A stretch of 64,000 bases of DNA from Candidatus Aenigmatarchaeota archaeon (GCA_039000165.1 JAWBTW010000002.1:3245-67244); one strand, 5' to 3'; shown: positions 13,603-63,213, counted from the first letter of the stretch. Made by a program: numbers and translations. The notes: a model not told the origin generated them from the sequence alone.

Positions 13603-14285
13603 ATCAAGAAGAAAATATTTTGGAGTTAATTCTTAAGAAAGAAAGTTGGGAAGAAGTTATTTACCACATAGTGAGCATAGAAAATCTTAATCCTTGGGAT
13701 ATAGATTTGGTTAGACTTGCGGATAGCTTTTTAAGGTATATCCAAAAGATTCAGGAACTTGATTTCAGAATTCCTGCGAAAATTGTTTTTGTCGCTGCAG
13801 TCCTCTTGAGACTTAAAGCTGATTACTTATCATTATTCGAAGAAGAAGAAAGTGTAGAAGAGATTGCTAAAGCCGAACCTTTCGTTGACTTAGGGATAGA
13901 TCCAAATTTAATTCAATTAGGTTTACCTATGAAAAGAATACCAAAGAGACAAGTAACGCTAGAAGAACTTATCAATGCTTTAAGGAAGGCTTTAGCGGTA
14001 AGGGAAAGAAAGATTGAAAGAAAGATTATGTGGAGAGCTAGAATTCAGGCCCAAATAAGCGAAGAAGACATAACAAAAAAGATTAATCATGTAATGAACG
14101 AAATCGACGAGCTTATCCAGAAATTAAAAGTTAATAAAATAAAGTTTAGCCAGATAGTTGAAGATTGGAACAGAGATCAAATAATCGACCATTTTGTTCC
14201 CTTGCTTCATTTAGAGCAAAATGAAAAAGTAGTTACTGAGCAAGAAGATTTTTTTAAGGATATTTTCATAACCAAAAAATCATGA
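13599..14285 (+). CDS. scpA: segregation and condensation protein A (kleisin)
   Basis: Start overlaps the smc stop. ScpA-like N-terminus (LELILKKESWEEVIYHIVSIENLNPWDIDLVRLADSFLRYI). Confidence 0.7.
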   Translation: MNQEENILELILKKESWEEVIYHIVSIENLNPWDIDLVRLADSFLRYIQKIQELDFRIPAKIVFVAAVLLRLKADYLSLFEEEESVEEIAKAEPFVDLGIDPNLIQLGLPMKRIPKRQVTLEELINALRKALAVRERKIERKIMWRARIQAQISEEDITKKINHVMNEIDELIQKLKVNKIKFSQIVEDWNRDQIIDHFVPLLHLEQNEKVVTEQEDFFKDIFITKKS

Positions 14286-14347
14286 GTAAGCTTAAGTTAG
14301 TAAGTTAATTTAAGCTTAAAGTTCATTATATAAGTTCAGGTGAGCAA

Positions 14348-14635
14348 ATGAGTTTTCTTAAAGAATTCATCGATTTTATGAAAAAACAAAACGTAATAGC
14401 AGTAGCTTTAGCTTTTGTCTTAGGTATTGCAACAGCCCAACTAGTTCAAGCACTAGTAACAGACATAATAACTCCAATATACGCTCCGTATCTTGATTTT
14501 TTAAACCCAGAATTGGCCATAGAGATAGGAAAATCTAAGTTTTTAATAGGAGATTTTATAAGACAGCTAGTTAATTGGGTTGTTATTTTGCTAGTAGTTT
14601 TCATAATAGGAACAAAAATAGCAAAAACTAAGTAA
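14348..14635 (+). CDS. mscL: large-conductance mechanosensitive channel
   Basis: MSFLKEFIDFMKKQNVIAVALAFVLGIATAQLVQALVTDIITP has the MscL TM1 signature. Length 95 aa. Confidence 0.8.
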   Translation: MSFLKEFIDFMKKQNVIAVALAFVLGIATAQLVQALVTDIITPIYAPYLDFLNPELAIEIGKSKFLIGDFIRQLVNWVVILLVVFIIGTKIAKTK

Positions 14636-14814
14636 TTTTTTCTTGTTTTTTTAATTTTTTTGAAAAAAAATCAAATAACTCTACCAGTTTCAAGTTCCGA
14701 GAAAAAAGCTTCCTTTTTTTGCTTATTGGATTTACTTTAAATATTAATTAATTATCCAAAAAAGGAGAAAACAATTATTTTAATTTTATATTAATTGACT
14801 CATATAAAAAATCT

Positions 14815-15969
14815 TTAATTTTTAAGAATTAAGGAGATTTGCCTTCCTCTAATTGCTTGAAACTTTTCTTCTGCCTCTTTATTTAATTTTTTAATCTTTT
14901 TTGTCATTTCTTTCACCATTTGCCGGATTTGTTCTGCCGCCTCTTTCATTTGTTTTTCTCTTTCTTTCTCTATTTCTTTTGTTAACATTTCAGTTTTGTA
15001 TCTTAATCCATATTCTTTGAGTAATTTTGGGAAACTAGTGTATTCGCTATCTATATGAGCTCCACCAACAATAACCATAGATCTAGCTTTAGGATTATTC
15101 GCATGAATTTTTGCTATCAAACGAGCCCAATGTTTTTCTCTTTCGTTAAAATAAATATTCCTAAGTTCTTCATTCTCGTAGAATTCTAACTTTTCCTCTA
15201 ATTCTTTTCTCTTTTTATCAGCTAAACCATAAATCTTCTCTAAATTTTCAGGACTAACTTCCCCTACTCCTAAAAGTTTCGAAAGATAAATTCTTCCTAC
15301 TCTTTCAAATTCATAAATAGGTATAGGTTTGTAAAACAACTCTCTAACTCTTTCAAGTTGTTTTTCAGCTATGTCTACATAACCTCTATCCAAGTAGTGC
15401 TTAGCTTGTATCATTAAGAAAAGAAACTCATTAATTCTTTGGATAATCATTTTTAAACTTATAGTTTTTTCAAAAATTTTAACAGCATTCTGTAACGAAT
15501 AAGGTTCCTCCATAGGCACAATTTTACAGCCAACTTTTCTTGCTAGTTCATAAATTTTTTTAAACTTCTCACTTATTTCCTTATCTTCTTCGAAACCTTT
15601 TTCGTCAATTTCCAAAAAAAGATAATCAGGTTTATTTTTTTCAATTAAGTACAATTCCTTTTCTATTTCTTTTTGGTACAGTTGTGGTGGACCACTGAAA
15701 GACATATCTTGAGCATACTCGTGAACCTCTCCTACAAGTAGGATATCATAAGGCTGAGAATACTTAAATACCTTTTTAGCTTTTCCAACAATTTTTGAAC
15801 TTTTTGAAAGAATCCCAACAACAAAAAACAAGAAAAACACAAAAATGCTCAAGATTAGGTTTTGATTTTGAAAAAAACTATTATGAAGAACAAAAAAACT
15901 TGTAAAGCTAGAGAAAAAAACTATAAAAATCAAAAAGAAACATAACAAAACTAGTAGAACTTTTTTCAT
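14815..15969 (-). CDS. TraB/GumN-family membrane protein (tentative)
   Basis: N-terminal TM helices. ILLVGEVHE, LFLEIDE and VIVGGAHI resemble TraB family motifs. Confidence 0.4.
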   Translation of the reverse strand: MKKVLLVLLCFFLIFIVFFSSFTSFFVLHNSFFQNQNLILSIFVFFLFFVVGILSKSSKIVGKAKKVFKYSQPYDILLVGEVHEYAQDMSFSGPPQLYQKEIEKELYLIEKNKPDYLFLEIDEKGFEEDKEISEKFKKIYELARKVGCKIVPMEEPYSLQNAVKIFEKTISLKMIIQRINEFLFLMIQAKHYLDRGYVDIAEKQLERVRELFYKPIPIYEFERVGRIYLSKLLGVGEVSPENLEKIYGLADKKRKELEEKLEFYENEELRNIYFNEREKHWARLIAKIHANNPKARSMVIVGGAHIDSEYTSFPKLLKEYGLRYKTEMLTKEIEKEREKQMKEAAEQIRQMVKEMTKKIKKLNKEAEEKFQAIRGRQISLILKN

Positions 15970-32826: not shown

Positions 32827-32910
32827 GGGCTCGTCCGGTAACCTGGATAGCCGACTGCGCTTCGGTTTTGAGGAAACGCAGTAGTGAGGGTTCAAATCCC
32901 TCCGAGCCCA
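32827..32910 (+). tRNA. tRNA-Arg (anticodon UCG) with a 10-nt intron at 37/38
   Basis: Acceptor GGGCUCG/CGAGCCC, T-arm GAGGG-UUCAAAU-CCCUC, anticodon stem CUGCG/CGCAG enclosing 17 nt. Exon CUUC pairs with intron GAGG, leaving an AAA bulge and a 6-nt loop (BHL). The intron is at 32866-32875. Confidence 0.75.
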
Positions 32911-40118: not shown

Positions 40119-40376
40119 GGCGAGCTAGCCAGGTAGCTTCGGCTTTGCATCAAAGCAAAGCTGAGGAAGTTCCCTCCATCCCTTAAGGTGCTGCGCAAGC
40201 AGCAGGCTGAGAAGCCTCTGCCAGAATCAGAAACGAGACCTTTTAGCTTCGCTAACCATGATGCGAAAGCTGAGTTGGGGCTAAAAGGATGAAACGGTCT
40301 GGCAGGCCTGGGATGCAAGTTTGAAACGCTTAGACAAATGCTACCAAAACATAAGAGGGGCTATGGCTAGCACGCC
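40119..40376 (+). ncRNA. rnpB: candidate RNase P RNA (minimal form)
   Basis: GC-rich noncoding island. The 5'/3' ends pair (GGCGAGCUAGCC / GGCUAGCACGCC, P1), followed by a P2-like strand and a P3 hairpin GCUUUGC-AUCAAA-GCAAAGC. Then comes a CR-I-like GAGGAAGUUCCCUCCAU, a GNRA-capped hairpin UGCUGC-GCAA-GCAGCA, and a CR-V-like CAGAAnC region near the 3' side. Confidence 0.5.
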
Positions 40377-50355: not shown

Positions 50356-51639
50356 TTAAAAAAAGTCAACCAATAACCATTTCCACAAAGGCTTAAAAAC
50401 AATTTTTTTGTTTTTTATCTTTTGTTGACCTTCATAATCCCAGGTTATCACTAGCAAATCTTTACATTTAAGTTCTTTGCTTGCCTTTATTAAAGACCTA
50501 ATTTCCCTTTTCTCAACCTCATCTTTACTAGAAGCATAAGTAACTTGAATTAGTTGATTGATTTTTAAACCTTTTTTCACGGCAAAATCTACCTCAAAAT
50601 CGTTCGATTTGAAGTAAAAAATTTCATCAACTTTTCCTTCAAACTTTTTTCTCAAAAGAGAAATAGCTACCAAGTTTTCCATTTTTTTCCCAAAATCTTT
50701 TGAAAACCTTGGTTCAATCGCAAAGTAAACATTATCTACCAAATAAATCTTTGCAGGATACTTTGCTCTTTCTCTGTACTTTAAAGAAAATCTTTTTATC
50801 GGAAAAACAAACAAAGCCTCTTCCACATACCTCAAATAATTCGCTAAGGTTTTTTTGCTAACTTTCAAGCCGATCGATTTCAATTCTTTTTCAATTTTTG
50901 TTAATGAGATATAGGAGGAAGAGTTTGCTATGCAATACCTAACAAAATAATCCATAAGTGTAACATTTTTTATTTTAAACCTTTCTATCAAATCCTTAAA
51001 AAATACGGTAGTAAAATAGGTTCTTGCTATTTCAATTTTCTTGTTTTTCTCGTCAGCAAGAAGAATTTCAGGATACCCTCCAAAATCAAGAAATTCTTTC
51101 AAAAGCATTAAAATTTCACCAACCTTTGCCTTAGAAATTTCTTCCCTAACTACAAACTTTTTTAGCTTAAGAAACTCTTTAAAGGTAAAAGGAAAAATTA
51201 TATAAGGAATACACCTTCCCCTTAGCTCGGTTGAAATCTCTCTGCTTAAAAGTTTTGAAGAAGAACCAGAAATTATTATTTTATATTTTTGGAAATTGTG
51301 CAAAGTTCTAACGAACGAAGGCCATTCTTCTAACTCTTGAATTTCGTCCAAGAAAAGAAAAACTTGATTTTTAAACAGTGAATTTACTTCCTTTAAAAAC
51401 TCAGAAACACCAATTTTTCTTACTCTTGGGTCGGTAAAATCTATGTAAACAACATTATCTTTGGAATTATTCTTTTCAAAGAGCTCTTTTATTAGCTGGA
51501 ACATAAAATAGGTTTTACCAGCTCTTCTTGGTCCTATAAGGGAAACTATGTGCTTGTTTATCCATACCTTTAAATCTCTCTCGATTATATCTTGCGGTAG
51601 TTCTTTCTCTTTCCACTCTAGTAAAACCTCTCTTAGCAT
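50356..51639 (-). CDS. AAA+ ATPase, COG1373/DUF4143 family
   Basis: Walker A GPRRAGKT, Walker B FLDEIQ, C-terminal DUF4143-like region. 427 aa. Confidence 0.75.
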   Translation of the reverse strand: MLREVLLEWKEKELPQDIIERDLKVWINKHIVSLIGPRRAGKTYFMFQLIKELFEKNNSKDNVVYIDFTDPRVRKIGVSEFLKEVNSLFKNQVFLFLDEIQELEEWPSFVRTLHNFQKYKIIISGSSSKLLSREISTELRGRCIPYIIFPFTFKEFLKLKKFVVREEISKAKVGEILMLLKEFLDFGGYPEILLADEKNKKIEIARTYFTTVFFKDLIERFKIKNVTLMDYFVRYCIANSSSYISLTKIEKELKSIGLKVSKKTLANYLRYVEEALFVFPIKRFSLKYRERAKYPAKIYLVDNVYFAIEPRFSKDFGKKMENLVAISLLRKKFEGKVDEIFYFKSNDFEVDFAVKKGLKINQLIQVTYASSKDEVEKREIRSLIKASKELKCKDLLVITWDYEGQQKIKNKKIVFKPLWKWLLVDFF

Positions 51640-52040: not shown

Positions 52041-52346
52041 TTATTCCATCTTTTTCCCTTCTTTATATCCTCTTAAAAGCTTCTCCATCTCTTTTTCATA
52101 TTCTTTTCTAAGCTCAGAAATCTTGCCCAAATAATCTAGCGTTAAAGACCTTATTTTTTCCTGAGCTTCGCTTCTACCTTCTAAAAACTCCCTAAACAAA
52201 GAATAAGCTATGTTACCAGCCAGAAGAGAAGAAATCAGACTTTCCCAATTCCTCACGTAATCCAAATCCTTCTTTATTTCTTCAAAACTTCTCATACTTT
52301 TAAAATAAAGAATAAATTTTAAAAAACTATTCTTTCTTAACAACAA
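52041..52346 (-). CDS. hypothetical small protein
   Basis: 101-aa ORF, overlapping the upstream KaiC-like gene end by 20 nt. Confidence 0.3.
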   Translation of the reverse strand: MLLRKNSFLKFILYFKSMRSFEEIKKDLDYVRNWESLISSLLAGNIAYSLFREFLEGRSEAQEKIRSLTLDYLGKISELRKEYEKEMEKLLRGYKEGKKME

Positions 52347-53055
52347 TTCCTTTATTAGTAATTTCTATGGGATAAATGTCAGTTCCATGCTTAGTGTGAC
52401 GCATCTTTCTTATAAGCAAGCTTCTTGGTGTTCCTCCTCCTGTAAATTCCAAATAATGCAAAACTATTACTGCATCTACTATAAATTCCTCAAAACCAAA
52501 TCTTGATAAGGCTTTTGTTGCTTCTGGTATCTCTCCAACTATCAAGCTTGTTACTCCATACTGTTTTAACCTCATTATTAGCTCGAAAACCTTTGCCCTT
52601 AGCTCAGTAGGGTCAGAAGCCTTTGCAGCAAAAGCTACCAAGCTTAAACCATCTAGAACAAAACGAGTAGCGTTTACTTCCTTTATCCTCTTAAAAATTT
52701 CATAATCCAAATCATCACAAGATTTAGGAAAAACATACTCTATTATACATCTTCCTTGTTGAATGTAAGGCCTGAAGTCCATCCCAAACTGCAAAGCTTG
52801 CGAGATTATATCTTCTGCTGGCTCTTCCAAGGTTATGTAAACTACATTTTCACCCTTTTGCAAGCCATGCCAAATGTATTGAGTACAAAAAATCGTTTTT
52901 CCTGTTCCTGTTTCTCCTGCTATCAAAACTGCTGAGCCTTTAACAAAACCTCCTTCTATTAGTCTATCCAAACCAGGAATTCCTGTTTCTACCCTTTCAG
53001 GTTTTCCTTCCTCTTTTGGTTTTTCAGAAACTTTTTTCATCTTTTTCTTCATCAA
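52327..53055 (-). CDS. KaiC-like RecA-superfamily ATPase (second copy)
   Basis: GIPGLDRLIEGGFVKGSAVLIAGETGTGKT Walker A plus a KaiC-like core. 242 aa. Confidence 0.75.
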   Translation of the reverse strand: MMKKKMKKVSEKPKEEGKPERVETGIPGLDRLIEGGFVKGSAVLIAGETGTGKTIFCTQYIWHGLQKGENVVYITLEEPAEDIISQALQFGMDFRPYIQQGRCIIEYVFPKSCDDLDYEIFKRIKEVNATRFVLDGLSLVAFAAKASDPTELRAKVFELIMRLKQYGVTSLIVGEIPEATKALSRFGFEEFIVDAVIVLHYLEFTGGGTPRSLLIRKMRHTKHGTDIYPIEITNKGIVVKKE

Positions 53056-53151: not shown

Positions 53152-53643
53152 TTATGCTGATTCTACAGGACCTGTAATTCTTGCTGTAAAGTCGTGAGAT
53201 ACGTCACCTGTAGTATAATACTTCCCTGATACGTCAATTGTGTAGCAATCACCAACAGCTACGGAATCTGGATCTGCGCTGGTTATGTCTACTGTTATCT
53301 CTGCGGTTTGACCTGTCTGTAAAGTTGTATCTGCACCTGGCCAAGTTGCTGTATCACCTGTTGGCGACATACTAAAAGTTAGAGGAGAAGCAGCCTTAAA
53401 AGTTATAGCCTCTGGCAAACCATTCGTTATTCTCATCTGCAATCTATTTCCGTTTGCTATCTGTGTTACTTTTATATAACTTCTATCAGTAGAAAAACCT
53501 CCTGGAACAGTTACTTGTGTTCCTGTCCATCTGCAAGGCTTTGTTAGCCCTAGAGCATACAAAGCAGCTACTACGATTATCACTATTAGGATTGCCCATC
53601 CATAAGTCATCAAATACTCCAAAGCGGTTTGTCCTTTCCTCAT
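53152..53643 (-). CDS. archaeal type IV pilin-like protein (class III signal peptide)
   Basis: MRKGQTALEYLMTYGWAILIVIIVVAALYALG has the KG|Q prepilin-peptidase site plus a hydrophobic helix (DUF361-like). Confidence 0.65.
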   Translation of the reverse strand: MRKGQTALEYLMTYGWAILIVIIVVAALYALGLTKPCRWTGTQVTVPGGFSTDRSYIKVTQIANGNRLQMRITNGLPEAITFKAASPLTFSMSPTGDTATWPGADTTLQTGQTAEITVDITSADPDSVAVGDCYTIDVSGKYYTTGDVSHDFTARITGPVESA

Positions 53644-53685
53644 TTTCTCACTAAAATTGAATTTCTTTTTCTTTAAATATAAGCT

Positions 53686-54684
53686 TTATGCTGGCAAGAA
53701 AAACAGGTTTGCTAACAAAAGCCTTGCTCCAATAAAAACCAAAAGCCCTACAGCGATTAAAGCAAAAACAAATTTTATTCCTGCCTTTTCCTTTCCTGCC
53801 TCTATTAAACCAATAATTATTCCTCCAAAAGTTGTTGTTATGATAATGGCTGCCATGGAAAAGTTAAAGATAAATTGAGGATCAATAGAAGGAGCAGCAA
53901 ATTTAATTATGCTTAATCCTCCTACTGCAGAAGTTTCAGGCATCTCTATTCCTGCGCTAACCCTTATTATCATCTCTACTAAATGAGTTGAAATTGCATA
54001 AAGCAAAGGAGCACCAATAGCTACAGCAAAAAGAATAAACATTCCGTACATAGCAACATTAGCCCTTACTTCTTTTCTTAAAGATTGAGTTTGTCTTGCA
54101 TCGTTTGCAGTTTCATCAAGCAAAGTAGCTAGTTCTCCTCCTGAACGCAAGCCTTCAACTATAAGCCTTATAGCTCTGTTAAGCATTTTCGACTCAATCC
54201 TCTTAGGAATTTCAAGCAAAGCGTCCTCTATGGTTCTTCCTGTTAAAGCTTCCTTTGCCGCCCTTTTTATTTCTATTTCTAAGGGCCCAAACTCAGGTCT
54301 TGCAGCAAGAAGCAAAGCTCGATCAGGAGTAATTCCTGCCCTAATGTTTGCTGCCATTAGTTGCAAGGCATCTGGTAAAATTTCATCAACAAAAGAAGCC
54401 TTCCTGTCAGCTATTAGAATTAGAATAGCATGCTCAACCAAAACAAAAACACAGAGAAAACCAAGAAAAGCAATTATAAAGTAGAGAAAATTTATGAAAC
54501 CGATCAAGAAAAGGGAAAGGCTTATTATGAAGCTGAGGAAAATTTCTACCAATAAAGTAAAGCCGATAAAAATATCAACGCTAGTTGGAATTCCACAACA
54601 AACAAGTTTTCTTTCTAGATATTCTCTATAACCTTTTGGCATCGCTCTTCCGATTTTCCTGTAAATCTTAACAAAACTTATCAT
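53686..54684 (-). CDS. TadC/FlaJ-like pilus assembly membrane protein (T2SSF domain), C-terminal half-equivalent
   Basis: T2SSF-type cytoplasmic domain between TM blocks. Separated from the upstream T2SSF gene by 1 nt. Confidence 0.65.
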   Translation of the reverse strand: MISFVKIYRKIGRAMPKGYREYLERKLVCCGIPTSVDIFIGFTLLVEIFLSFIISLSLFLIGFINFLYFIIAFLGFLCVFVLVEHAILILIADRKASFVDEILPDALQLMAANIRAGITPDRALLLAARPEFGPLEIEIKRAAKEALTGRTIEDALLEIPKRIESKMLNRAIRLIVEGLRSGGELATLLDETANDARQTQSLRKEVRANVAMYGMFILFAVAIGAPLLYAISTHLVEMIIRVSAGIEMPETSAVGGLSIIKFAAPSIDPQFIFNFSMAAIIITTTFGGIIIGLIEAGKEKAGIKFVFALIAVGLLVFIGARLLLANLFFLPA

Positions 54685-54685
54685 C

Positions 54686-55594
54686 TTATACCTCCAGGCT
54701 TGGCCTCCTAACTTTTATCAAACCAATAAACATGAATTGGAAGATTATCAAGAATCCCAAAATTAGGTATAGGAAAATGTCTAAGGGCAGGAATGAAAGA
54801 CCAAAGAAAGAAGAAAGAATTATTATGAAAGTTATTCCTAGAGTTGGAATAATAACTGCAGTCATCAAATACATCAAAGCCATAGGATTAAGCTGAGCTC
54901 CATACCTTCTAATCTCAATTCTCTGGTCTATTGCTAAGCCATTAACTATTTCTCTTAAAGTTGTTGCTATGTCTGAGCCAGCTCTCATTCCATTAACTAG
55001 TTGCCAAATAACCCTTCTAAAGTAGAGAGAAGGATTCCTAAAAGACATGTTTTCCAAAGCTTCTATCTCAGAAACTCCTGCGTTTATTTCCTTTACTGCT
55101 TCTTCAAATTCTTCTGAAACCAAACCATAATCTCCTGCAGCAACAGAAACCATAGCGTTAAAAAGAGTAACTCCTGACCTAACTTGAATCAGCAAATGCC
55201 TTAAAGCATAGAGCAAATCTCTTTCCAAAAGCCTTATTTTCTTAATCAAGAGCATTTTTGGGTAAAGAATTACGTAATAAAAAACAAAGAAAGTTATTCC
55301 TATATCTAGGGAAAGCATGGTAACAAGATAAGTTGGAGTAAAGGCAGCTAAAGGATTTAAAGGATTAGAAATTATCCCCAAGAAAATTGTTATGAAAATC
55401 ATTAGAGCAAAATAAAAAAATGCGGTAAAAATTGCTAAGGCAATGTATTCCCTAGGGTTCAAATCAACCTTTGCTTGTTTAAGCTCATAACTTAAAGAAG
55501 GAAAAAGCTTTGCCATCTCTTTGCTTACTCCAAAAAACTTCCTTGCATAATTCAAAGCTACTTCTGTTTTGAAAGGAAGTAGGGGAATCCTCAA
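54686..55594 (-). CDS. TadB/FlaJ-like pilus assembly membrane protein (T2SSF domain), N-terminal half-equivalent
   Basis: T2SSF-like domain plus TM helices. Start overlaps the ATPase stop by 4 nt. Confidence 0.65.
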   Translation of the reverse strand: MRIPLLPFKTEVALNYARKFFGVSKEMAKLFPSLSYELKQAKVDLNPREYIALAIFTAFFYFALMIFITIFLGIISNPLNPLAAFTPTYLVTMLSLDIGITFFVFYYVILYPKMLLIKKIRLLERDLLYALRHLLIQVRSGVTLFNAMVSVAAGDYGLVSEEFEEAVKEINAGVSEIEALENMSFRNPSLYFRRVIWQLVNGMRAGSDIATTLREIVNGLAIDQRIEIRRYGAQLNPMALMYLMTAVIIPTLGITFIIILSSFFGLSFLPLDIFLYLILGFLIIFQFMFIGLIKVRRPSLEV

Positions 55595-58500
55595 GTTTTC
55601 AACTCCTTCATCAAATCTCCTAACAATCTCTCTGGACTAATATTAGCTTTTATTGCACTTATTATTTTTTCTGGTTCAGAATAATACTCAGAAATAACAA
55701 AACCAACAGTATTGACAGTATTAATATTGTGCCTAACTAACCAATCAAGAACCATTTGCCTTTGAGCAAGCTCTTGAGCTATTTCTTGATCTGTCATTCC
55801 TGTGTAAAGCCTTAAGTCGTCCATTATTCTCATGCTTGTCTTGAAAGGAATAATTTCATCCTTATCTGCTCTCCACCTAAACAAAGTGTTAAGCTGAACT
55901 CCTCTTTCACTTGGAATAATTTCAGAAACTTGAAAAACTCTCCTTATTCCTTTTCTTCTGTCTCTGTGCATTGCTAGTATAATATGCAAAGCTTCTAAGA
56001 GCATTTCTGGCACGTTTATCGGTGGATTAACTAATCTTCTAACAGTTTGCTCTGCAGTGTCTGCATGCAAGGTTGAATAAACTGAATGACCAGTGTGCAT
56101 AGCTTCGAACAAAACTTCTGCTTCCCTTGCCCTTCTTATTTCTCCTACTATTATTCTGTCTGGCCTCATTCTCAAAGCGTTTACCATTAAATCTAACATA
56201 GAAACTTCTCCCTTTCCTTCAGGGTTCGGCTCTCTTGTTGTTAGAGGGACCCAGTGCAAGAAATCTGGCAACTGAATTTCTCTTGTGTTGTGCGCTATTA
56301 TATTGTTACAAACAAAACTTTCATTTCCTGGAACACTTATATCATAAACATAACCTTCAAACTCTCTTTCCTTTATTTCCTTTACTCTATCCCAAAAGAT
56401 GTCGTTACTAGCTAACTTTATTAAAATTTCATTTCCACCATCGTTTGCAATCTTACTCACAATTTCTTTCAACAATTCTCTCCCTATGTTAGATTTCATG
56501 TAATTTCTGTGCCAAGATTTCCATCCCTTATAACTTCTTTTTACTCCAACCTCTTCTTTTAACAATTTTTTAAGTCTGAGATAAAAGTGCTTTGGCAAAG
56601 GAACTACATCAGAAACATCATGGACTTTTTTATGCAACAAACTAAAAAGTTTTTCGTTGTTTTTCTCTTGCAAAAATCCAACTTCATAAAAGAAAGTTTT
56701 TAAAAATTTTGAACCAGAGATTGTTGCTTGATAAGTATTATCCTTAAACTTTTTTCCTATTCTTAAAGGAATTCCAAACCTTAGCAAAAGTGTTTGAATA
56801 TCTTTTAGAAGATTGAATGAAACAGAAGAAACTGCAACATCCTTTGACCTTACCCAACCATCTCCTGAAAAGTATCCTTTTAAAAATGCTGCTAGCTCTT
56901 CTTTTTCCAGACCAAAAACCCAACTTGGAACTCTTTTAGTATAGACATTTCCTTCTAACCCTAAAACTTCTTTGAAAAATGTTTTAAACAGTTTTGAATT
57001 AAGCATCAAGGAAATTTTATCACTATGCAATTTACAACCCATTCTAAACCTTTTTGCAATTTTCCTAATAATTTTTTTACTTTCCTCATCAGTAACAGAA
57101 AAAATAACAGAATTTCTATCGTAACAGCCATCTGCAAGCCAAAGCCCAGCTACTAATGCTAAATCTTTATTTACGCTAACTTTTAAAGGTAAGAAAGAAC
57201 CGCTTCTAGATTTTATTTTTCCTTTTCTTGGTTTAACGTTTAGCTTCTGCAGCACTTCAGCTTTCAAAACTCCTTTTTTTAAGTAATAGTAAGCTTGTTG
57301 CTTTGATAAAAGTTTTGATTCTACCAGCTTTTTAAAGTTTTTTCTAATAAATTCTTTGTCCACTTCAACAAAACATCCTTTGAATTTCTCAAGCTCTAAG
57401 GAAAGGTCAAAAACTTTCTTTTTTCCTTCATAAGGGAGTATTCTTGGTACTGCAATAAAACTTCCAACTTTTATTTCTTTTCCAGGAATTGGCACTATTT
57501 CACCGTTTTCGTTCAAACCAAAAAGAGAATGATCTTCTGTAACTGAAATCTTTCTTCCGCTAGCTAAAATTATATCTAAAACTTTCTTTTTTACTTTATG
57601 CCTAATAAAGTGGGAAGGTAGAGCAAGCTTAATTTTTCCATCTTTATCCATGGAAAAAATTTTTATGTTATCTTTGTTTTCAACTTTTTCTTCACCATCG
57701 GGGAGTAAAGAATCTATTAGTTCGCCAATAGCCTTTCTAAAGATTTCTCCTTTCCTTTCAAAAAGGATTTCACAATCGCCAGTGACGCTATCCTCTATCG
57801 AAACAATTCTATGGTTTGGTGGAATGAAAGTTGTTAAAACGTTCAGAATAGAAGTTTTTCCTGTTGCAGTCCCCCCAGAAACTATTATGTTCATTTCATA
57901 ATGAATGGCAAGCCAAAGCAAGGAAGCTACCTCTTTGTTTATTGTATTGTTTCTTATCAAGTCAGTTATCGTCCAAGGTTTTCTCGCAAATTTTCTTATC
58001 GTAATAGTATTTCCTTTTGTTGAAATCGGGAATAAAGTTGCGTTAACTCTGTCTCCTGTTGTTAGGTGCGCATCCATCAAAGGGTTTAAACTAGTTATTT
58101 GCCTTCCAACTTTCCTTCCTATCATGCTTGCATAGTTGTAAATTTCCAAATCACTTTTTATTACTATGTTAGTCTTAAGCCAACCATACTTTTTATGATA
58201 AACCCACAAAGGCTCTTGAGAATTGTTTATAACTATTTCTTCCAGATTTTCATCCTTAAGCAAAACTTCAACTTTTCCCAAGCCTAGCATCTCATGAACT
58301 AAAGTACCTGCCAAAATTCTTTTTTCTTCCTCAGAAATTCTTGGTAATTGTCTTTGAATTAGTTCTAAAGCCTTGTTGAAAAACCTTTGCTTCAAATCTT
58401 CCATCACTCTTGGGTCAAGAATTTCCTGAACTTTCACTCCAACTTCAGTTATTAACCTTTCCCTTATAGCAGATAAAACTGCTAGGGTTGCTTCCTCAAA

Positions 58501-58611
58501 CTTTGGTAAAGAAACTTCATAAATGGGAACAAATTCACCTTCTATTTTAACTATGTTAACCTCTGCAGGCACACCTTCTGCAACAAGCTTATAGCTATCC
58601 AATATTCTCAT
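55591..58611 (-). CDS. type IV pilus/archaellum-type secretion ATPase (TadA/FlaI/KlbA-like) containing an intein
   Basis: Walker A GGTATGKTS. Extein Asp box RIVSIED|TREIQLP is interrupted. Walker B DRIIVGEIR and a His box are present. The 505-aa extein is normal for the family. Confidence 0.85.
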   Translation of the reverse strand: MRILDSYKLVAEGVPAEVNIVKIEGEFVPIYEVSLPKFEEATLAVLSAIRERLITEVGVKVQEILDPRVMEDLKQRFFNKALELIQRQLPRISEEEKRILAGTLVHEMLGLGKVEVLLKDENLEEIVINNSQEPLWVYHKKYGWLKTNIVIKSDLEIYNYASMIGRKVGRQITSLNPLMDAHLTTGDRVNATLFPISTKGNTITIRKFARKPWTITDLIRNNTINKEVASLLWLAIHYEMNIIVSGGTATGKTSILNVLTTFIPPNHRIVSIEDSVTGDCEILFERKGEIFRKAIGELIDSLLPDGEEKVENKDNIKIFSMDKDGKIKLALPSHFIRHKVKKKVLDIILASGRKISVTEDHSLFGLNENGEIVPIPGKEIKVGSFIAVPRILPYEGKKKVFDLSLELEKFKGCFVEVDKEFIRKNFKKLVESKLLSKQQAYYYLKKGVLKAEVLQKLNVKPRKGKIKSRSGSFLPLKVSVNKDLALVAGLWLADGCYDRNSVIFSVTDEESKKIIRKIAKRFRMGCKLHSDKISLMLNSKLFKTFFKEVLGLEGNVYTKRVPSWVFGLEKEELAAFLKGYFSGDGWVRSKDVAVSSVSFNLLKDIQTLLLRFGIPLRIGKKFKDNTYQATISGSKFLKTFFYEVGFLQEKNNEKLFSLLHKKVHDVSDVVPLPKHFYLRLKKLLKEEVGVKRSYKGWKSWHRNYMKSNIGRELLKEIVSKIANDGGNEILIKLASNDIFWDRVKEIKEREFEGYVYDISVPGNESFVCNNIIAHNTREIQLPDFLHWVPLTTREPNPEGKGEVSMLDLMVNALRMRPDRIIVGEIRRAREAEVLFEAMHTGHSVYSTLHADTAEQTVRRLVNPPINVPEMLLEALHIILAMHRDRRKGIRRVFQVSEIIPSERGVQLNTLFRWRADKDEIIPFKTSMRIMDDLRLYTGMTDQEIAQELAQRQMVLDWLVRHNINTVNTVGFVISEYYSEPEKIISAIKANISPERLLGDLMKELKT
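56287..57789 (-). mobile_element. intein (501 aa) with LAGLIDADG homing-endonuclease domain in the secretion ATPase
   Basis: Block A SVTGDCEIL (Ser1), block B TEDH, two LAGLIDADG motifs (LVAGLWLADGCY, LAAFLKGYFSGDGWV), C-terminal ...IIAHN followed by +1 Thr. Inserted at the conserved IED|T site. Confidence 0.8.
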
Positions 58612-59258
58612 TTTCTCATCCTTAGCTCAGGTTCGCCTATTGCAGGATAAAAAATTTCAGCCAAACCATGATCTTCCAAAATCTTTGCCCATTCTTCTAT
58701 AACTTCTTTGCTTACATTAAACATTTTTTCCAGCTCGCTAAACTTTACTCTTTTCTTTTCCTTTATAACAGCAAGTATTCTGTCTATATCAGTTTCCATC
58801 ATGCTCGGAACTTTTTCCACAGTAGAGACTTTTTCAGAAACTGCTTCTGCCATGAGCTTAGCAAGAGATTTTATTATATCGTCTCGAGCAATTATTCCTA
58901 CAATATTATTCTTTTTATCAACTACAGGAAGCCTTTTAACTTTGTATAAACTCATCAATAAAACAGCTCTATCTAAACCATCCTCTTCATTAGCTACTAT
59001 AACAACTTTTTTCATTATTTCCTTTACTTTTGTCACACCTTTTTCTTTTAAGGCTCCTTCATCTATTGCTAACAAATTTTTCTTTCCTACCAAATCCAAA
59101 ATGTCTGCTTCTGTTATTATTCCAACTATTTTTCCTTCTTTAACAACAGGTAAGCCTGAAACTTTTGATTCTGCAAGAATTTTTACAACTTCCATTATGC
59201 TTTGTTCAGGAGAAACTGTAATAACATTTTTTGACATAACATCCTTTACTTTAAGCAT
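58608..59258 (-). CDS. CBS-domain pair protein
   Basis: Two CBS repeats (VMSKNVITVSP...SGLPVV; VKEIMKKVVIVANEE...KRLPVV). C-terminal about 70 aa possibly wHTH. Stop overlaps the ATPase start. Confidence 0.75.
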   Translation of the reverse strand: MLKVKDVMSKNVITVSPEQSIMEVVKILAESKVSGLPVVKEGKIVGIITEADILDLVGKKNLLAIDEGALKEKGVTKVKEIMKKVVIVANEEDGLDRAVLLMSLYKVKRLPVVDKKNNIVGIIARDDIIKSLAKLMAEAVSEKVSTVEKVPSMMETDIDRILAVIKEKKRVKFSELEKMFNVSKEVIEEWAKILEDHGLAEIFYPAIGEPELRMRK

Positions 59259-59296
59259 ACTTATCTAATAATTAATTTGATTTTCTTAATTAAAAT

Positions 59297-60310
59297 TTAG
59301 CAAGGATTAAGCAAAGGATTCCCAAAAAGTTGATATTTCATTAAACGTTGCTGATCGTCAATTTCATTATCAATTCTAAACCAGTTTGGTACATCTGGGT
59401 TGTTTATCCAATAACAACTCAAATCTTCTGACCGAATCGAAGAGTTCCAGTAAAGAAAATCTACAACAGTCCTGTTTGGCTGAGGTTCTATACCTAAAGC
59501 TTTTAACTTTTGAATATTAACAAAACTTTCCAACCCTATTAACATTGAACTCTGATAATTTGCTACCAGCCTTCCTTCCAGTCTATCTAAAAAGCTTGGC
59601 CCGTATAGCGAAGAATGAAAATACCCATTTTCTGCATCGTTAGCTAAATTTTCGAAATGATAGTTTCCTGAAGAATCTTGATAAGTATGATTGCTTTCAA
59701 AAGGACACTTCCAAATTGTTTTTCTATATCTTCCATTGGTATATAAAGGTGCTAAAGGATCCTCTAAACCTTCAATAGAAATCAAAACTTCCTTTTGCCC
59801 ATTTCTATAAATCCTTATTGTTTCAGTGTTATCAGAAATGTTTATCGTGAAATTTATTCTGAAAAGGATGTTGAAACTATCAAAAGGCTTTATTTCTATT
59901 TCGCTTGTGTTTAGCTTGAATTTAAAAGTTTTGTTTGCTTTTTTCTCTATTTCTTCCATCCAGTAGGTTATGCTATTATTGTACATGATATCATTTCTGC
60001 TTCCTTCTAGGGTTCCATTTTGAGCTAGTTCAAAAATTTTTTCTATAGCTTTACCTTGTTCAAAAGGTTTTCCTCCTAAAGTAACGTTATCAACAGCTGC
60101 GATCAAAGCCCTTTTTGCTGAAATTCTTAAAGCTCTTTCTATATCCTCTTCTATATTTTTTGCAAAATAGTGCAATTGGTCAGAAATAATTTTTTCTGCT
60201 GCATCTTTCCTTAAGGAATAGGAAATGTTTAAGTAAGTGAGTAGAATTGCTACTACCGAAGCTACAATCAAAACTGAAATTATAGTATAGATTAAACCTT
60301 TCATGCCCAC
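59297..60310 (-). CDS. pilin-like/membrane-anchored protein
   Basis: N-terminal MGMKGLIYTIISVLIVASVVAILL has a KG-hydrophobic class-III-like signal. Many N-x-S/T sequons. Confidence 0.4.
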   Translation of the reverse strand: MGMKGLIYTIISVLIVASVVAILLTYLNISYSLRKDAAEKIISDQLHYFAKNIEEDIERALRISAKRALIAAVDNVTLGGKPFEQGKAIEKIFELAQNGTLEGSRNDIMYNNSITYWMEEIEKKANKTFKFKLNTSEIEIKPFDSFNILFRINFTINISDNTETIRIYRNGQKEVLISIEGLEDPLAPLYTNGRYRKTIWKCPFESNHTYQDSSGNYHFENLANDAENGYFHSSLYGPSFLDRLEGRLVANYQSSMLIGLESFVNIQKLKALGIEPQPNRTVVDFLYWNSSIRSEDLSCYWINNPDVPNWFRIDNEIDDQQRLMKYQLFGNPLLNPC

Positions 60311-63213
60311 ACCTTTATTTCAAGATTAGTCAAACCCCAAAGAGAAGGAACTGCTGCAACGTACAAAGTTTCGAACAAAATCTCTGGAGTTATCATTATG
60401 TCTATTGGGTTATTCTCGGTTCCTGGCCACCAATTTCTATCACTAATATCTAAGGGATTTTCTGGCAAGTCAGGTGGTCTGATAAAGTTCAATTGGTTTA
60501 AAAGCATAAGAAAAGCATAGTCAACTGCGTTATGTGTAACGTTTAAATCTTGAACTCTTCCCAAAGTTGCGTTAAATTTAGGAACGTTTCTTCCTATTAC
60601 TACCGCATAAGAACCGTCTGCAGTTCCATCATGATCTCTATCATAGTAAACAGTTATGTTTCTCCCTTCTATGTAAGGAAAAACGATTGAGGAATAAGCT
60701 GTATAAGACTTAAAGCTTGCTGTATAAATTACTCTATCACGAGAGGAGCAAATGCTACTAGTATTAGTTGGGCCTAAGCCTAAAACAAGCCCAACAGTAT
60801 TGTTTTCACCAGATTTTATATAGCTAGGAGAAAACTGAATGCTGAAAGGATCACCAAGGTAAACGTAATTGCTTCCAAAAGAGTCTAAACTCCAAGTAAT
60901 ATTCCAGTTATGAGCTGAGTTGTTAACATAAACCTTTCTTGACCAGAAATCAGAAGAATAGGAAGTTCTTATTACATCTAAAACTTTTACTTGTTGAGGA
61001 ACAAAAAATGTTCCATTACAACCAAAAGGGTTTGTTTCAACTTTTAAAGAAATTTCCCCGTATTCTTCTTTTGCTTCAGGTTCGTAGTAGAATTCTATGT
61101 AAGAGTCTGGATAAAGATAATTTCCTTTAAAAACTTCCCCTGTTATGTTTATTCTTTGAGCGACATAAGCTCCTGCAAAATATTCTGCAAACTGCTTGTA
61201 AATTCTTTTTAGTTCTTCATAATCATTACTTTGAGCGTATCTTACTGCTCTACAATCAGCTGTACTTCCATTTGGTAGTGTTACTTGACCTATCCAAGTA
61301 TTTGAAGAACAATTCCAACAGGCTATTCTTTGAAGAGTATATTCGTCTGCCTCGTCGCCAAAAGCAACAGCAAAAACTACATAACCTTTATTTCTTGCTT
61401 CACACGCTTTATATACACTACAATTTACAGGATTATCCCATGGTGATGGACAAGAACCGCAAGATGTCATTCTATTTGCAATACCGTCGCTCATCACTAA
61501 CATACCTCTAAACTTTTCAGAAGAACTTAAAGTATCTAGCATTTGGATTGCCATATTTATTCCGCAACATATACAAGTGGTAGACAAAGGCCTATAAGAA
61601 TTAATTTGATTAATAAGCTGAGTTGTATTATTAGTCAAACTAAGCACTCGGTCTACATCCTGGCTATAACTTACTAACCCAACTCTATTACCAGAGACAT
61701 TTAAAACTGTATAAACAAAATCTCTATCAACTTCCCTTGCCATATCCATTTTTTGTCGACAATATCTTCTTTGAACGTCGCAATTTGGAAAACCTATATA
61801 TGGGCATCTTCCTCGACTATACCTGCAATAATAACTCCAGCAAAAGTTGCCAATAAATCTTATACCGCACCATTCGTTTGTATAATTGAAATTAGTAGAA
61901 TCGCCTAAGACATCAACGCCTTCCATACTTCCTGAAACATCAGTTATCAAAACAGCATCAGCCAATCCTACACCACCATAAGCTTGAAACTCTTCACTTC
62001 CAAACCTTATCGGCACAGTTCTGTTGCTAACATTTCCTTTCAAAGCATTTATTCCACCAAATTTTTCAGAAATATTTTCAAAACTTAAATCAATAGTTAC
62101 TTCACCAGTAGCGTTCGTTCTGTTAAGTTCTATTCCACCTATGTTTAAAAACATCTCAATTCCTATTCCATCGGGAGTTGTTAAGTTACTATAATAGTGT
62201 AAATGAATTCTCATTCCATTAGTTTCATCTAAGGTTCCTGGCAAGTAAAAAGAATCATAAAGGTTTATCAAACCATAAATTCCTGGGAAATAATACCTAT
62301 AAACATTTTTTCTAGGAGAAGCAAATTCCGTAGTATCATAAGTAACTTTTATATAGCCACCTCCGATAAACTGCTCGTTTATATCAGGAGAGGTAAAGTT
62401 TATGTCAAAAGCAGTCTCATTGCCATAACCTTTGTTTATTTGGTTCAAACAGTGTTGCCCGTTACTTTCATTAATAACAAAGCTATCTACTGCAAAATAA
62501 CCAGAAGAAGTTTTGTTAAAAATCCCACAAAAAGTTTTGTTCACATAAAGAGTAAAATTGCTCCCAAAAGTCCCCTCTATATAAATTGAGGAAATGTTAG
62601 CATCCAAAGGAATATCTCTAATTATTGCTGTTATGTTTCCTTGACCAACAAAACCTCCAAAGTAAAAGTAAGAAGCTGTGTTTTTCCCTAAAATTTTTTC
62701 CAAATAAGCCCTTGCAGTATATCCTTCTACTGGTTTGCCAACAGCATAACCTGAAACTGTTGTTTTTGAAACCGAAAGCAAGCTTTTTACTGGTTTGCTC
62801 CTATTTGCTAAAGAAGTTCCATCCATAGAAACTTCATAACCCAAATTCTCAGGAATAGTTAGGTTAAGAATCGATTCTGTTATGTTTTTTGCCATGTTTT
62901 TTGCTTCTTCAGTTCCGTTAACCCACAAGCTTCCTATAACATCTAGCAAACTTTTATCCATATCTTCCTCTCTCAAAATTCCTTGATCTTTCAAATCCTT
63001 TATCGCAGGAAACTTATCTACAACATAAGAAACTTTTGTTTTTGTTAAGAGTTCTAAGGAATCTTGTGCAAGGTAGTGAAACCTTTCATAAGTTTGATGC
63101 TGAACAAAAGAAGTCGTTCCTATAAAAGAAACAACTATAGCAAAAATTACTAATAAAGAAATTGCCAGAATTGCCTCTAATGAAAAAACCTGACCTTTCA
63201 TTTTTATCGCCAT
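60301..63213 (-). CDS. large pilin-like protein with von Willebrand factor A domain (candidate tip adhesin)
   Basis: N-terminus MAIKMKGQVFSLEAILAISLLVIFAIVV is a class III signal. MIDAS motif LITDVSGSMEG. 970 aa with numerous glycosylation sequons. Confidence 0.6.
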   Translation of the reverse strand: MAIKMKGQVFSLEAILAISLLVIFAIVVSFIGTTSFVQHQTYERFHYLAQDSLELLTKTKVSYVVDKFPAIKDLKDQGILREEDMDKSLLDVIGSLWVNGTEEAKNMAKNITESILNLTIPENLGYEVSMDGTSLANRSKPVKSLLSVSKTTVSGYAVGKPVEGYTARAYLEKILGKNTASYFYFGGFVGQGNITAIIRDIPLDANISSIYIEGTFGSNFTLYVNKTFCGIFNKTSSGYFAVDSFVINESNGQHCLNQINKGYGNETAFDINFTSPDINEQFIGGGYIKVTYDTTEFASPRKNVYRYYFPGIYGLINLYDSFYLPGTLDETNGMRIHLHYYSNLTTPDGIGIEMFLNIGGIELNRTNATGEVTIDLSFENISEKFGGINALKGNVSNRTVPIRFGSEEFQAYGGVGLADAVLITDVSGSMEGVDVLGDSTNFNYTNEWCGIRFIGNFCWSYYCRYSRGRCPYIGFPNCDVQRRYCRQKMDMAREVDRDFVYTVLNVSGNRVGLVSYSQDVDRVLSLTNNTTQLINQINSYRPLSTTCICCGINMAIQMLDTLSSSEKFRGMLVMSDGIANRMTSCGSCPSPWDNPVNCSVYKACEARNKGYVVFAVAFGDEADEYTLQRIACWNCSSNTWIGQVTLPNGSTADCRAVRYAQSNDYEELKRIYKQFAEYFAGAYVAQRINITGEVFKGNYLYPDSYIEFYYEPEAKEEYGEISLKVETNPFGCNGTFFVPQQVKVLDVIRTSYSSDFWSRKVYVNNSAHNWNITWSLDSFGSNYVYLGDPFSIQFSPSYIKSGENNTVGLVLGLGPTNTSSICSSRDRVIYTASFKSYTAYSSIVFPYIEGRNITVYYDRDHDGTADGSYAVVIGRNVPKFNATLGRVQDLNVTHNAVDYAFLMLLNQLNFIRPPDLPENPLDISDRNWWPGTENNPIDIMITPEILFETLYVAAVPSLWGLTNLEIKVWA

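Follow-up and report, generated by a model that had tools for sequence, protein, structure and literature searches.

A class 1 LAGLIDADG intein at the Asp box of a type IV pilus-like assembly ATPase in Candidatus Aenigmatarchaeota

Type IV filaments of DPANN archaea are thought to mediate attachment to the host. The family of ATPases considered here has long been known to harbor inteins, and Table 3 of Novikova et al. (2016) counts 21 of them in archaeal VirB11 (COG0630) and five in CpaF (COG4962), from Crenarchaeota, Euryarchaeota and "other Archaea", without saying in the main text where they are inserted (PMC4760082). The Mja KlbA intein (MJ0781; structures 2jmz and 2jnq) resides in a host of the same secretion-ATPase superfamily and is a class 2 mini-intein of 168 amino acids (aa), which begins with Ala1 (ALAYDE) and has no endonuclease. 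Large archaeal class 1 inteins that combine a HINT domain, a double LAGLIDADG motif and DNA-binding regions are known from other proteins, namely PI-PkoII (T. kodakarensis Pol-2, 2cw7), PI-PfuI (1dq3) and TliVMA (7qss), hosted by a DNA polymerase, a ribonucleotide reductase and a V-ATPase, respectively. Here we describe a stretch of 64,000 nucleotides (nt) from a Candidatus Aenigmatarchaeota archaeon (GCA_039000165.1, JAWBTW010000002.1:3245-67244), hereafter the window, in which the gene of a type IV pilus-like assembly ATPase is, in our judgment very probably, interrupted at its Asp box by a self-splicing and recently mobile class 1 LAGLIDADG intein.

Anatomy of the precursor and of the intein

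The gene and its parts are listed below (positions are counted from the first letter of the window; the arrow used in the sequence motifs of this text marks an intein junction).

55591..58611, minus strand: precursor open reading frame (ORF) of 1006 aa, with N-extein, intein, C-extein and stop codon (translation, Pfam)
57790..58611, minus strand: N-extein, aa 1-274 (the matches of the NCBIfam ATPase models end at residue 275)
56287..57789, minus strand: intein, aa 275-775, 501 aa, 1503 bp (Pfam PF14890 and PF14528, sequence and fold matches)
55594..56286, minus strand: C-extein, aa 776-1006 (the ATPase matches resume at residue 774)

The insert opens with SVTGDCEIL at aa 275 and closes with ...NNIIAHN at aa 775, directly followed by TREIQLP. 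In Pfam the T2SSE match (PF00437, 1.9e-30) of the 1006-aa ORF is broken in two, Intein_splicing (PF14890) covers aa 293-775 with an E-value of 1.9e-27 and 96.4 bits against a cut-off of 35.8, and LAGLIDADG_3 (PF14528) matches in two stretches (3.1e-19). Likewise, the NCBIfam model of the intein N-terminus, TIGR01445 (intein_Nterm), is passed with 43.4 bits against a cut-off of 24.5, and the intein match is thus far above chance. A first-pass annotation, made from the sequence alone, had proposed a full-length intein with two LAGLIDADG motifs at aa 275-775, which begins with Ser1, carries TEDH in block B and ends in His-Asn before a Thr at position +1. Each of these elements is found in the translated ORF.

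57763..57789, minus strand: block A, SVTGDCEIL, with the Ser1 codon at 57787-57789 (Ser1 at least 90% conserved in alignment A1)
57520..57543, minus strand: block B, VTEDHSLF, with Thr84 and His87, VTEDH being intein residues 83-87 (alignments)
57118..57156, minus strand: LAGLIDADG motif 1, LVAGLWLADGCYD, intein residues 212-224 (alignments)
56851..56883, minus strand: LAGLIDADG motif 2, LKGYFSGDGWV, intein residues 303-313 (D310 and G311 at least 90% conserved)
56287..56355, minus strand: blocks F and G, GYVYDISVPGNESFVCNNIIAHN, read as YVYDISVP...NNIIAHN, with Asp483, His500 and Asn501 (invariant in A1)

Ser275 of the ORF corresponds to Ser1 and Thr776 to Thr+1 (codon 56284-56286). The conservation of the catalytic residues was assessed in A1, an independently chosen alignment of 26 sequences with relatives from several host proteins, in which there is no variation at T84, H87, D483, H500 or N501 and conservation of at least 90% at S1 and at the Asp-Gly pair of the second LAGLIDADG motif (D310/G311). 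A second set comprises 75 inteins that share the insertion site, and in it VT.DHSLF, and so T84 and H87, is at least 90% conserved, as are both LAGLIDADG motifs (GLWLADGCYD and YFSGDG) with their acidic residues intact. This set was gathered by a pattern demanding ED↓S and HN↓[TS], and for this reason Ser1 and the terminal His-Asn count as independent evidence in A1 and not in the 75 sequences.

The fold is in accordance with the sequence. An AlphaFold2 model of the intein reached a mean predicted local distance difference test (pLDDT) of 91.5 and a predicted template modeling score (pTM) of 0.91, with residues 416-431 as the only poorly defined segment, and besides the HINT splicing domain and the double-motif LAGLIDADG endonuclease it has accessory helical regions. 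Among solved structures PI-PkoII (2cw7) is the best match both by sequence (9e-24) and in a Foldseek comparison of the model with the PDB (E 4e-30, template modeling (TM) score 0.75), followed in the latter by TliVMA (7qss) and PI-PfuI (1dq3), and the central domain of the model resembles the free-standing LAGLIDADG enzymes I-DmoI and I-Tsp061I. By its sequence the insert is in every respect a class 1 intein, which would be expected to splice, and with two motifs and the fold present its putative LAGLIDADG endonuclease is predicted to cleave DNA.

The interrupted Asp box and its intein-free counterparts

The motifs of the host protein were located by alignment to solved ATPases.

57850-57879, minus strand: Walker A, SGGTATGKTS (N-extein)
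57790-57801, minus strand: first half of the Asp box, SIED (N-extein)
56266-56286, minus strand: second half of the Asp box, TREIQLP (C-extein)
56134-56163, minus strand: Walker B, PDRIIVGEIR (C-extein)
56062-56097, minus strand: His box, HTGHSVYSTLHA (C-extein)

The insertion point lies in frame between Asp274 and the Thr of the Asp box (SIED↓TRE). Upon removal of the intein in silico a contiguous 505-aa ATPase is obtained, as the first-pass annotation had stated, in which SIED and TREIQLP are rejoined and Walker A, Asp box, Walker B and His box follow each other in the usual order. The closest solved ATPase is afGspE2 of Archaeoglobus (2oap, 3e-74), which reads VVSIEDTREIKL without interruption and has a contiguous SIEDTRE; FlaI (7e-58) and CpaF (4.5e-54) come next, and the exteins align with all three across the four motifs. 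The host is accordingly assigned by homology to the T2SSE ATPases of the PilT/VirB11 superfamily, and within these to the FlaI/GspE2 clade. The earlier description of the host as TadA/FlaI-like holds in the sense of an archaeal ATPase of this clade, but extends neither to bacterial TadA nor to the FlaI equivalog of the archaellum. Identity with archaellum FlaI/ArlI was considered and rejected, as the equivalog model NF058587, scored on the precursor, gave 269.9 bits against a cut-off of 550, and no archaellin genes were seen among the genes neighboring 55591-58611.

The Asp-box glutamates E312 of CpaF (PMC11300603) and E357 of PilB (PMC5424180) coordinate the catalytic Mg2+. Position 312 of the CpaF chain (501 residues) aligns with the Glu of TRE, which is Glu+3 in the window, and the intein is therefore placed three residues before the Mg2+-coordinating glutamate, provided that the index of the PDB chain equals the native numbering. 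With the intein in place the active site is broken up, Walker A being left on one side and the Asp-box Glu, Walker B and the His box on the other, and consequently the unspliced precursor should be inactive; like the first-pass annotation, we infer that pilus assembly would depend on splicing.

Splicing would be expected to start with an N-O acyl shift at Ser1, aided by Thr84 and His87 of block B, after which attack of Thr+1 on the ester would yield a branched intermediate. Cyclisation of Asn501, aided by His500 and by Asp483 of block F, would then free the intein, and an O-N shift would leave the 505-aa ATPase with its Asp box intact and a free 501-aa endonuclease. The latter would cut intein-free alleles at ...TCTATCGAAGAT↓ACTAGAGAAATT..., and the repair of the cut would copy the intein in (homing). 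Since the nucleophiles are Ser1 and Thr+1, and not Cys, and the exteins are without any Cys, redox gating of this reaction, such as occurs in some inteins, is unlikely; dependence on temperature or metals is possible.

Intein-free alleles of the same gene are readily found. A search with the spliced protein returned 7830 matches at E <= 1e-10, and the 120 best matches listed are all 491-589 aa long, carry no intein domain, bear source names such as FlaI, type II/IV secretion ATPase and TadA, and include named sources among Aenigmarchaeota and other DPANN archaea. The nearest of the intein-free relatives have 94, 81 and 74% extein identity, the first of these (P0001) being, like the spliced product, 505 aa long and aligned over 100% of its length. 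In the contig that encodes P0001 (L001, GCA_037440965.1) the flanking genes are homologous (78% and 84% nt identity), and the ATPase gene is equal in length to the spliced gene of the window and 86% identical at the nt level. By comparison with this empty site, ...CCAAACCACAGAGTAGTTTCTATCGAAGAT↓ACTAGAGAAATTCAGCTTCCAGATTTT..., the insertion point of the 1503-bp element can be placed precisely, with GAT (Asp) before it and AC(A/T) (Thr) after it. An assembly artefact was also considered and rejected, the same insertion being present in two independent assemblies, those of the window and of a sister strain.

These alleles also bear on whether the 501-aa segment might be a normal, lineage-specific domain that is kept in the ATPase. 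Such a notion can draw on the continuous reading frame and on nothing else, and we consider it hardly credible: the segment is precisely absent from the three orthologues above, matches the profiles and folds of inteins and LAGLIDADG enzymes, and divides the active site, with Walker A on one side and Walker B and the His box on the other.

Mobility and spread of the Asp-box allele

The sister strain, Candidatus Aenigmatarchaeota archaeon DRTY-6_201808_bins_93 (JAVZHQ010000001.1; L005), is occupied by the intein and is 96.35% identical to the window over positions 53464-59297. The differences are unevenly distributed: 10 of 1503 nt differ in the intein (0.67%) and 100 of 1518 in the exteins (6.6%; Fisher p 2e-20), and a run of 844 identical nt lies inside the intein. 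The first extein mismatches occur 3 nt past the C-junction and 55 nt past the N-junction. Seven of the differences in the intein are synonymous, against 86 in the exteins, where a further 14 nt fall in amino-acid-changing codons. Because this ten-fold deficit sits at synonymous sites, purifying selection is excluded as its cause, and the low divergence therefore points to recent homing in this lineage, the simplest reading being an arrival of the intein in one or both alleles since the split of the two strains. The intein also differs in composition, with a GC content of 31% and 23% at third codon positions (GC3), below the 35-37% and 29-30%, respectively, of the exteins.

The same figures have to be weighed against an intein that splices but whose endonuclease is inactive, which would have been inherited vertically and would owe its low divergence to chimeric assembly or to general homologous recombination. 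Both sequences are derived from metagenomes, the neighboring genes vary as well (92.6 to 97.3% identity to the sister strain), and the C-extein shows no co-conversion tract, with mismatches already at +3, +6 and +9 nt. On the other hand, the block of low divergence coincides, to within 3 nt on the C side and 54 nt on the N side, with the borders of the intein, which makes a strain chimera less likely; the two LAGLIDADG motifs are intact, acidic residues included, and well conserved in the 75 homologues, and the intein is patchily present among close relatives. We regard a vertically inherited intein with an inactive endonuclease as unlikely, though deserving of some weight.

Considerably less probable is a relic that has lost splicing, in which case the ATPase gene would effectively be a pseudogene and a paralogue elsewhere would drive the pilus. 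DPANN genomes often have several T2SSE paralogues, and the Asp-box intein is carried in at least three extein clades. Against this, the frame of 1006 codons is intact with every splicing residue present, the changes in the exteins relative to the sister strain are mostly synonymous (86 versus 14), overlaps of start and stop codons tie the gene to its operon, and no second T2SSE gene was found within the 64-kb window.

The distribution of the allele was assessed by a scan with one genome per GTDB species, in which 80 of 104 relatives were kept and 75 had readable junctions. All 75 occupy the same Asp-box site with Ser1, and the residue at +1 is Thr in 73, Ser in one and off the contig end in one. 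An intein at the ED↓S...HN↓T site is thereby present in 74 further species-representative DPANN genomes, mini-inteins among them. Nearly all of the 75 loci are labeled as DPANN or unclassified archaeon (two labels, "bacterium" and Methanosarcinales, are odd), and the lineages include Aenigmatarchaeota, Iainarchaeota, Micrarchaeota, Woesearchaeota, Pacearchaeota, Nanoarchaeota and Nanohalarchaeota. A protein search with the intein alone likewise recovered many proteins, metagenomic ones among them, with junctions of the form (I/V/L)ED↓SV(T/A)GD...(A/V)HN↓T(R/L/Q)E(L/I). Decayed inteins of 375-410 aa and mini-inteins of 206-217 aa are found at the site, and one carrier (P0196) has a mini-intein of 186 aa which lacks the residues corresponding to 117-463 of the intein in the window. 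The first-pass annotation had called an endonuclease-containing intein at the Asp box notable, and its rarity was overstated in view of the 74 further genomes. In the literature searched no paper describing the Asp-box allele was found, the candidate papers bringing up inteins solely in other connections, and viral contigs, scanned for a vector that might carry the intein, gave no match. The patchy distribution, and the occurrence of empty, full-length, decayed and mini alleles at one site, would correspond to the stages expected from a homing cycle, and the site thus lets the complete cycle be seen in nature, in DPANN archaea that are uncultured, in addition to a nucleotide-level signature of very recent spread of an intein between two co-occurring strains.

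Further large inserts were observed in ten of these hosts (L018, L021, L039, L042, L050, L053, L055, L056, L073 and L080; ORFs of 1583-1861 aa), and several hosts carry two or three inteins in one ATPase. In L021, L050, L053, L056 and L080 the second insert lies near Walker B and ends in ...FGGI(I/L)LHN↓TEA(L/K/R)ALYEAMR, and that of L039 has the same position. L018 has an insert at extein position ~303/304 and L055 at ~205, while in L042 and L073 the P-loop region holds about 700 aa directly before the Asp box. If the His-box site of KlbA is counted, there appear to be at least six insertion points in this one ATPase family, and DPANN type IV filaments thus have in their motor ATPase a multi-site intein hotspot (Asp box, P-loop region, near Walker B, two other positions and the KlbA His box).

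Several points weigh against the interpretation as a self-splicing, recently mobile intein, or at least temper it. As both the window and its sister are metagenome assemblies, a strain chimera could mimic the divergence contrast, and one neighboring gene, the first of two T2SSF-family genes, is at 97.3% identity also less diverged than the exteins; the contrast could in part stem from chimeric assembly or ordinary recombination instead of endonuclease-driven homing. Inteins with Ser1 and Thr+1 can be slow or temperature dependent, and in the literature searched no report of splicing or cleavage was found for any member of the Asp-box allele. The numbering of the CpaF chain bears on the position of Glu+3, as mentioned above, and the type of filament, whether an adhesive pilus or a type IV filament of another kind, is deduced from gene content only.

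Finally, the intein may have been co-opted as a conditional switch, in which temperature, metal ions, nucleotide or another cue would gate splicing and, through it, the pilus and the attachment of a presumed episymbiont to its host. The insertion at a motif of the Mg2+ and nucleotide site, the retention of the allele across many DPANN lineages, endonuclease-less mini-inteins included, and the two or three inteins found in one ATPase of several hosts would fit such a role, and conditional protein splicing is documented for other inteins (e.g. PMC6195587 and PMC7360933). In contrast, redox control would have neither a catalytic Cys nor any Cys in the exteins to act on, and a selfish element accounts better for an intein that is patchily present and missing from close relatives, which leaves this possibility improbable. 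The broader proposal that the Asp-box intein and the other inteins of DPANN filament ATPases constitute, beyond selfishness, a post-translational gate on pilus assembly appears to us slightly more doubtful still; if true, temperature, Mg2+ or nucleotide would permit splicing at a Mg2+-ATP motif and thereby turn on the ATPase and host attachment.

For practical purposes, the self-splicing intein proposed here has consequences for annotation. Several carriers are labeled in NCBI as "LAGLIDADG family homing endonuclease" or "TadA, partial", and because pipelines name the genes in this way, the inteins need to be removed in silico before work on phylogeny or structure. The Ser1/Thr+1 inteins of this lineage, which appears from the isolate name to come from hot springs, could also serve as splicing tools.

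The pilus locus and comparison with known inteins and ATPases

The genes around the ATPase are the following.

54686..55594, minus strand: T2SSF-family platform protein 1, 302 aa, whose start overlaps the ATPase stop by 4 nt (PF00482, 2e-15)
53686..54684, minus strand: T2SSF-family platform protein 2, 332 aa (PF00482, 4.6e-16)
53152..53643, minus strand: type IV pilin-like protein, 163 aa, N-terminus MRKGQTALEYLMTYGWAILIVIIVV (MRKGQTALEYL...; sequence reading)
52327..53055, minus strand: KaiC/RecA-like ATPase, 242 aa, at the distal end of the operon (TIGR03880, 3e-49, below the cut-off)
58608..59258, minus strand: CBS-domain protein, 216 aa, whose stop overlaps the ATPase start by 4 nt (PF00571, 3.4e-30)
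59297..63213, minus strand: two genes with pilin-like hydrophobic N-termini, of 337 aa and of 970 aa with a VWA domain (sequence, Pfam)

This gene content identifies the locus, as far as homology can tell, as a type IV pilus-like operon, in which the CBS-domain gene precedes the ATPase, the two T2SSF genes come directly downstream of it, before the pilin-like gene, and the two genes of 337 and 970 aa lie further upstream. The 163-aa pilin-like protein (53152-53643) had no NCBIfam match, and its N-terminus has the look of what we take, from the established features of archaeal prepilin signals, to be a class III signal peptide. The KaiC-like ATPase (52327-53055) shows a weak similarity to FlaH/ArlH. 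The 337-aa protein (59297-60310, minus strand) is syntenic with positions 1-1493 of the sister-strain locus L005, at just ~40-70% protein identity, while the operon, which it immediately precedes, is ~93-97% identical at the nt level, and this protein may be a rapidly evolving component of the surface or of a filament. The 970-aa protein (60301-63213, minus strand; N-terminus MAIKMKGQVFSLEAILAISLLV) has a VWA domain (PF00092, 5e-8) and many N-x-S/T sequons, and may be a pilus-tip adhesin. A gene for an AAA_14/DUF4143 ATPase (50356-51639, minus strand) lies near the operon, and an AAA_14/DUF4143 pair (14156-15442) is also near the distantly related, mini-intein operon of locus L002, for which reason this gene may be a conserved operon neighbor. 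Elsewhere in the window, an archaeal RNase P RNA (40120-40375, plus strand, 135.8 bits) confirms that the sequence is archaeal, and an Rfam tRNA match (32827-32910, plus strand, 46.6 bits), which is without an ARAGORN counterpart, may represent an intron-containing or otherwise atypical archaeal tRNA.

Compared with described inteins, the element is a canonical class 1 LAGLIDADG intein and leaves the understanding of inteins unchanged. PI-PkoII, its best match (TM 0.75/0.70), PI-PfuI and TliVMA share its architecture, but their structure-based identity to it is just ~15-23%. The archaeal inteins of myo-inositol-1-phosphate synthase are likewise of the Ser1/Thr+1 type, at junctions NIGGN↓SVTGD...VHN↓TDFLNM, and are ~29-36% identical to the intein over its whole length, although their host enzyme and target site are unrelated; they form a large group (P0144-P0191) from Hadarchaea, Aenigmarchaeota and others. 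This likeness suggests that the same intein lineage has colonized an unrelated gene. The other DPANN Asp-box inteins (P0122-P0130, P0136-P0139, P0196, P0214; L005-L084) agree with that of the window in ED↓S...HN↓T, Ser1 and Thr+1 and are 35-50% identical to it over the whole intein (99% for the sister strain), yet some of them are mini or decayed and some of their hosts have inteins elsewhere too. On the side of the host, afGspE2 (2oap), FlaI of S. acidocaldarius (4ii7/4ihq) and CpaF (8rkd/9e24) share the four motifs and are intein-free, and unlike FlaI the ATPase of the window falls below the equivalog cut-off and stands in an operon with a pilin and T2SSF proteins rather than in an archaellum operon. 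The inteins counted under COG0630 and COG4962 occupy the same host family (PMC4760082).

The comparison with KlbA is the most instructive with respect to the site. Its extein flanks were recovered by testing candidate flanks against the PDB chain 2jmz, of which NTGHDG↓S matched, and the chain reads MNTGHDG↓ALAY...VSA↓SSGTLHH, which is the His-box motif; LPDG↓C in the N-terminal domain, also considered as the insertion site, was thereby rejected. A protein search with the KlbA intein for full-length MJ0781 gave one weak and irrelevant match. The KlbA site thus corresponds to the His box (AMNTGHDGSMGTLHAN in CpaF and AMHTGHSVYSTLHA in the window), which in the window begins 64 residues downstream of the Asp-box junction, with the KlbA intein itself lying about 67 residues downstream, and the two inteins are only weakly similar in sequence (1.1e-4). 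Given its His-box site, its Ala1 and its lack of an endonuclease, KlbA represents a different allele and class from the intein of the window, and membership of the latter in the class 2 KlbA allele is ruled out by its Ser1 and by its junction, SIED↓TRE instead of NTGHDG↓(C/S)xGTLH; the contrast with KlbA-type inteins drawn at the outset from the sequence was therefore justified. The Asp box is accordingly a site distinct from the textbook KlbA site, yet one that is widespread in public DPANN genomes.

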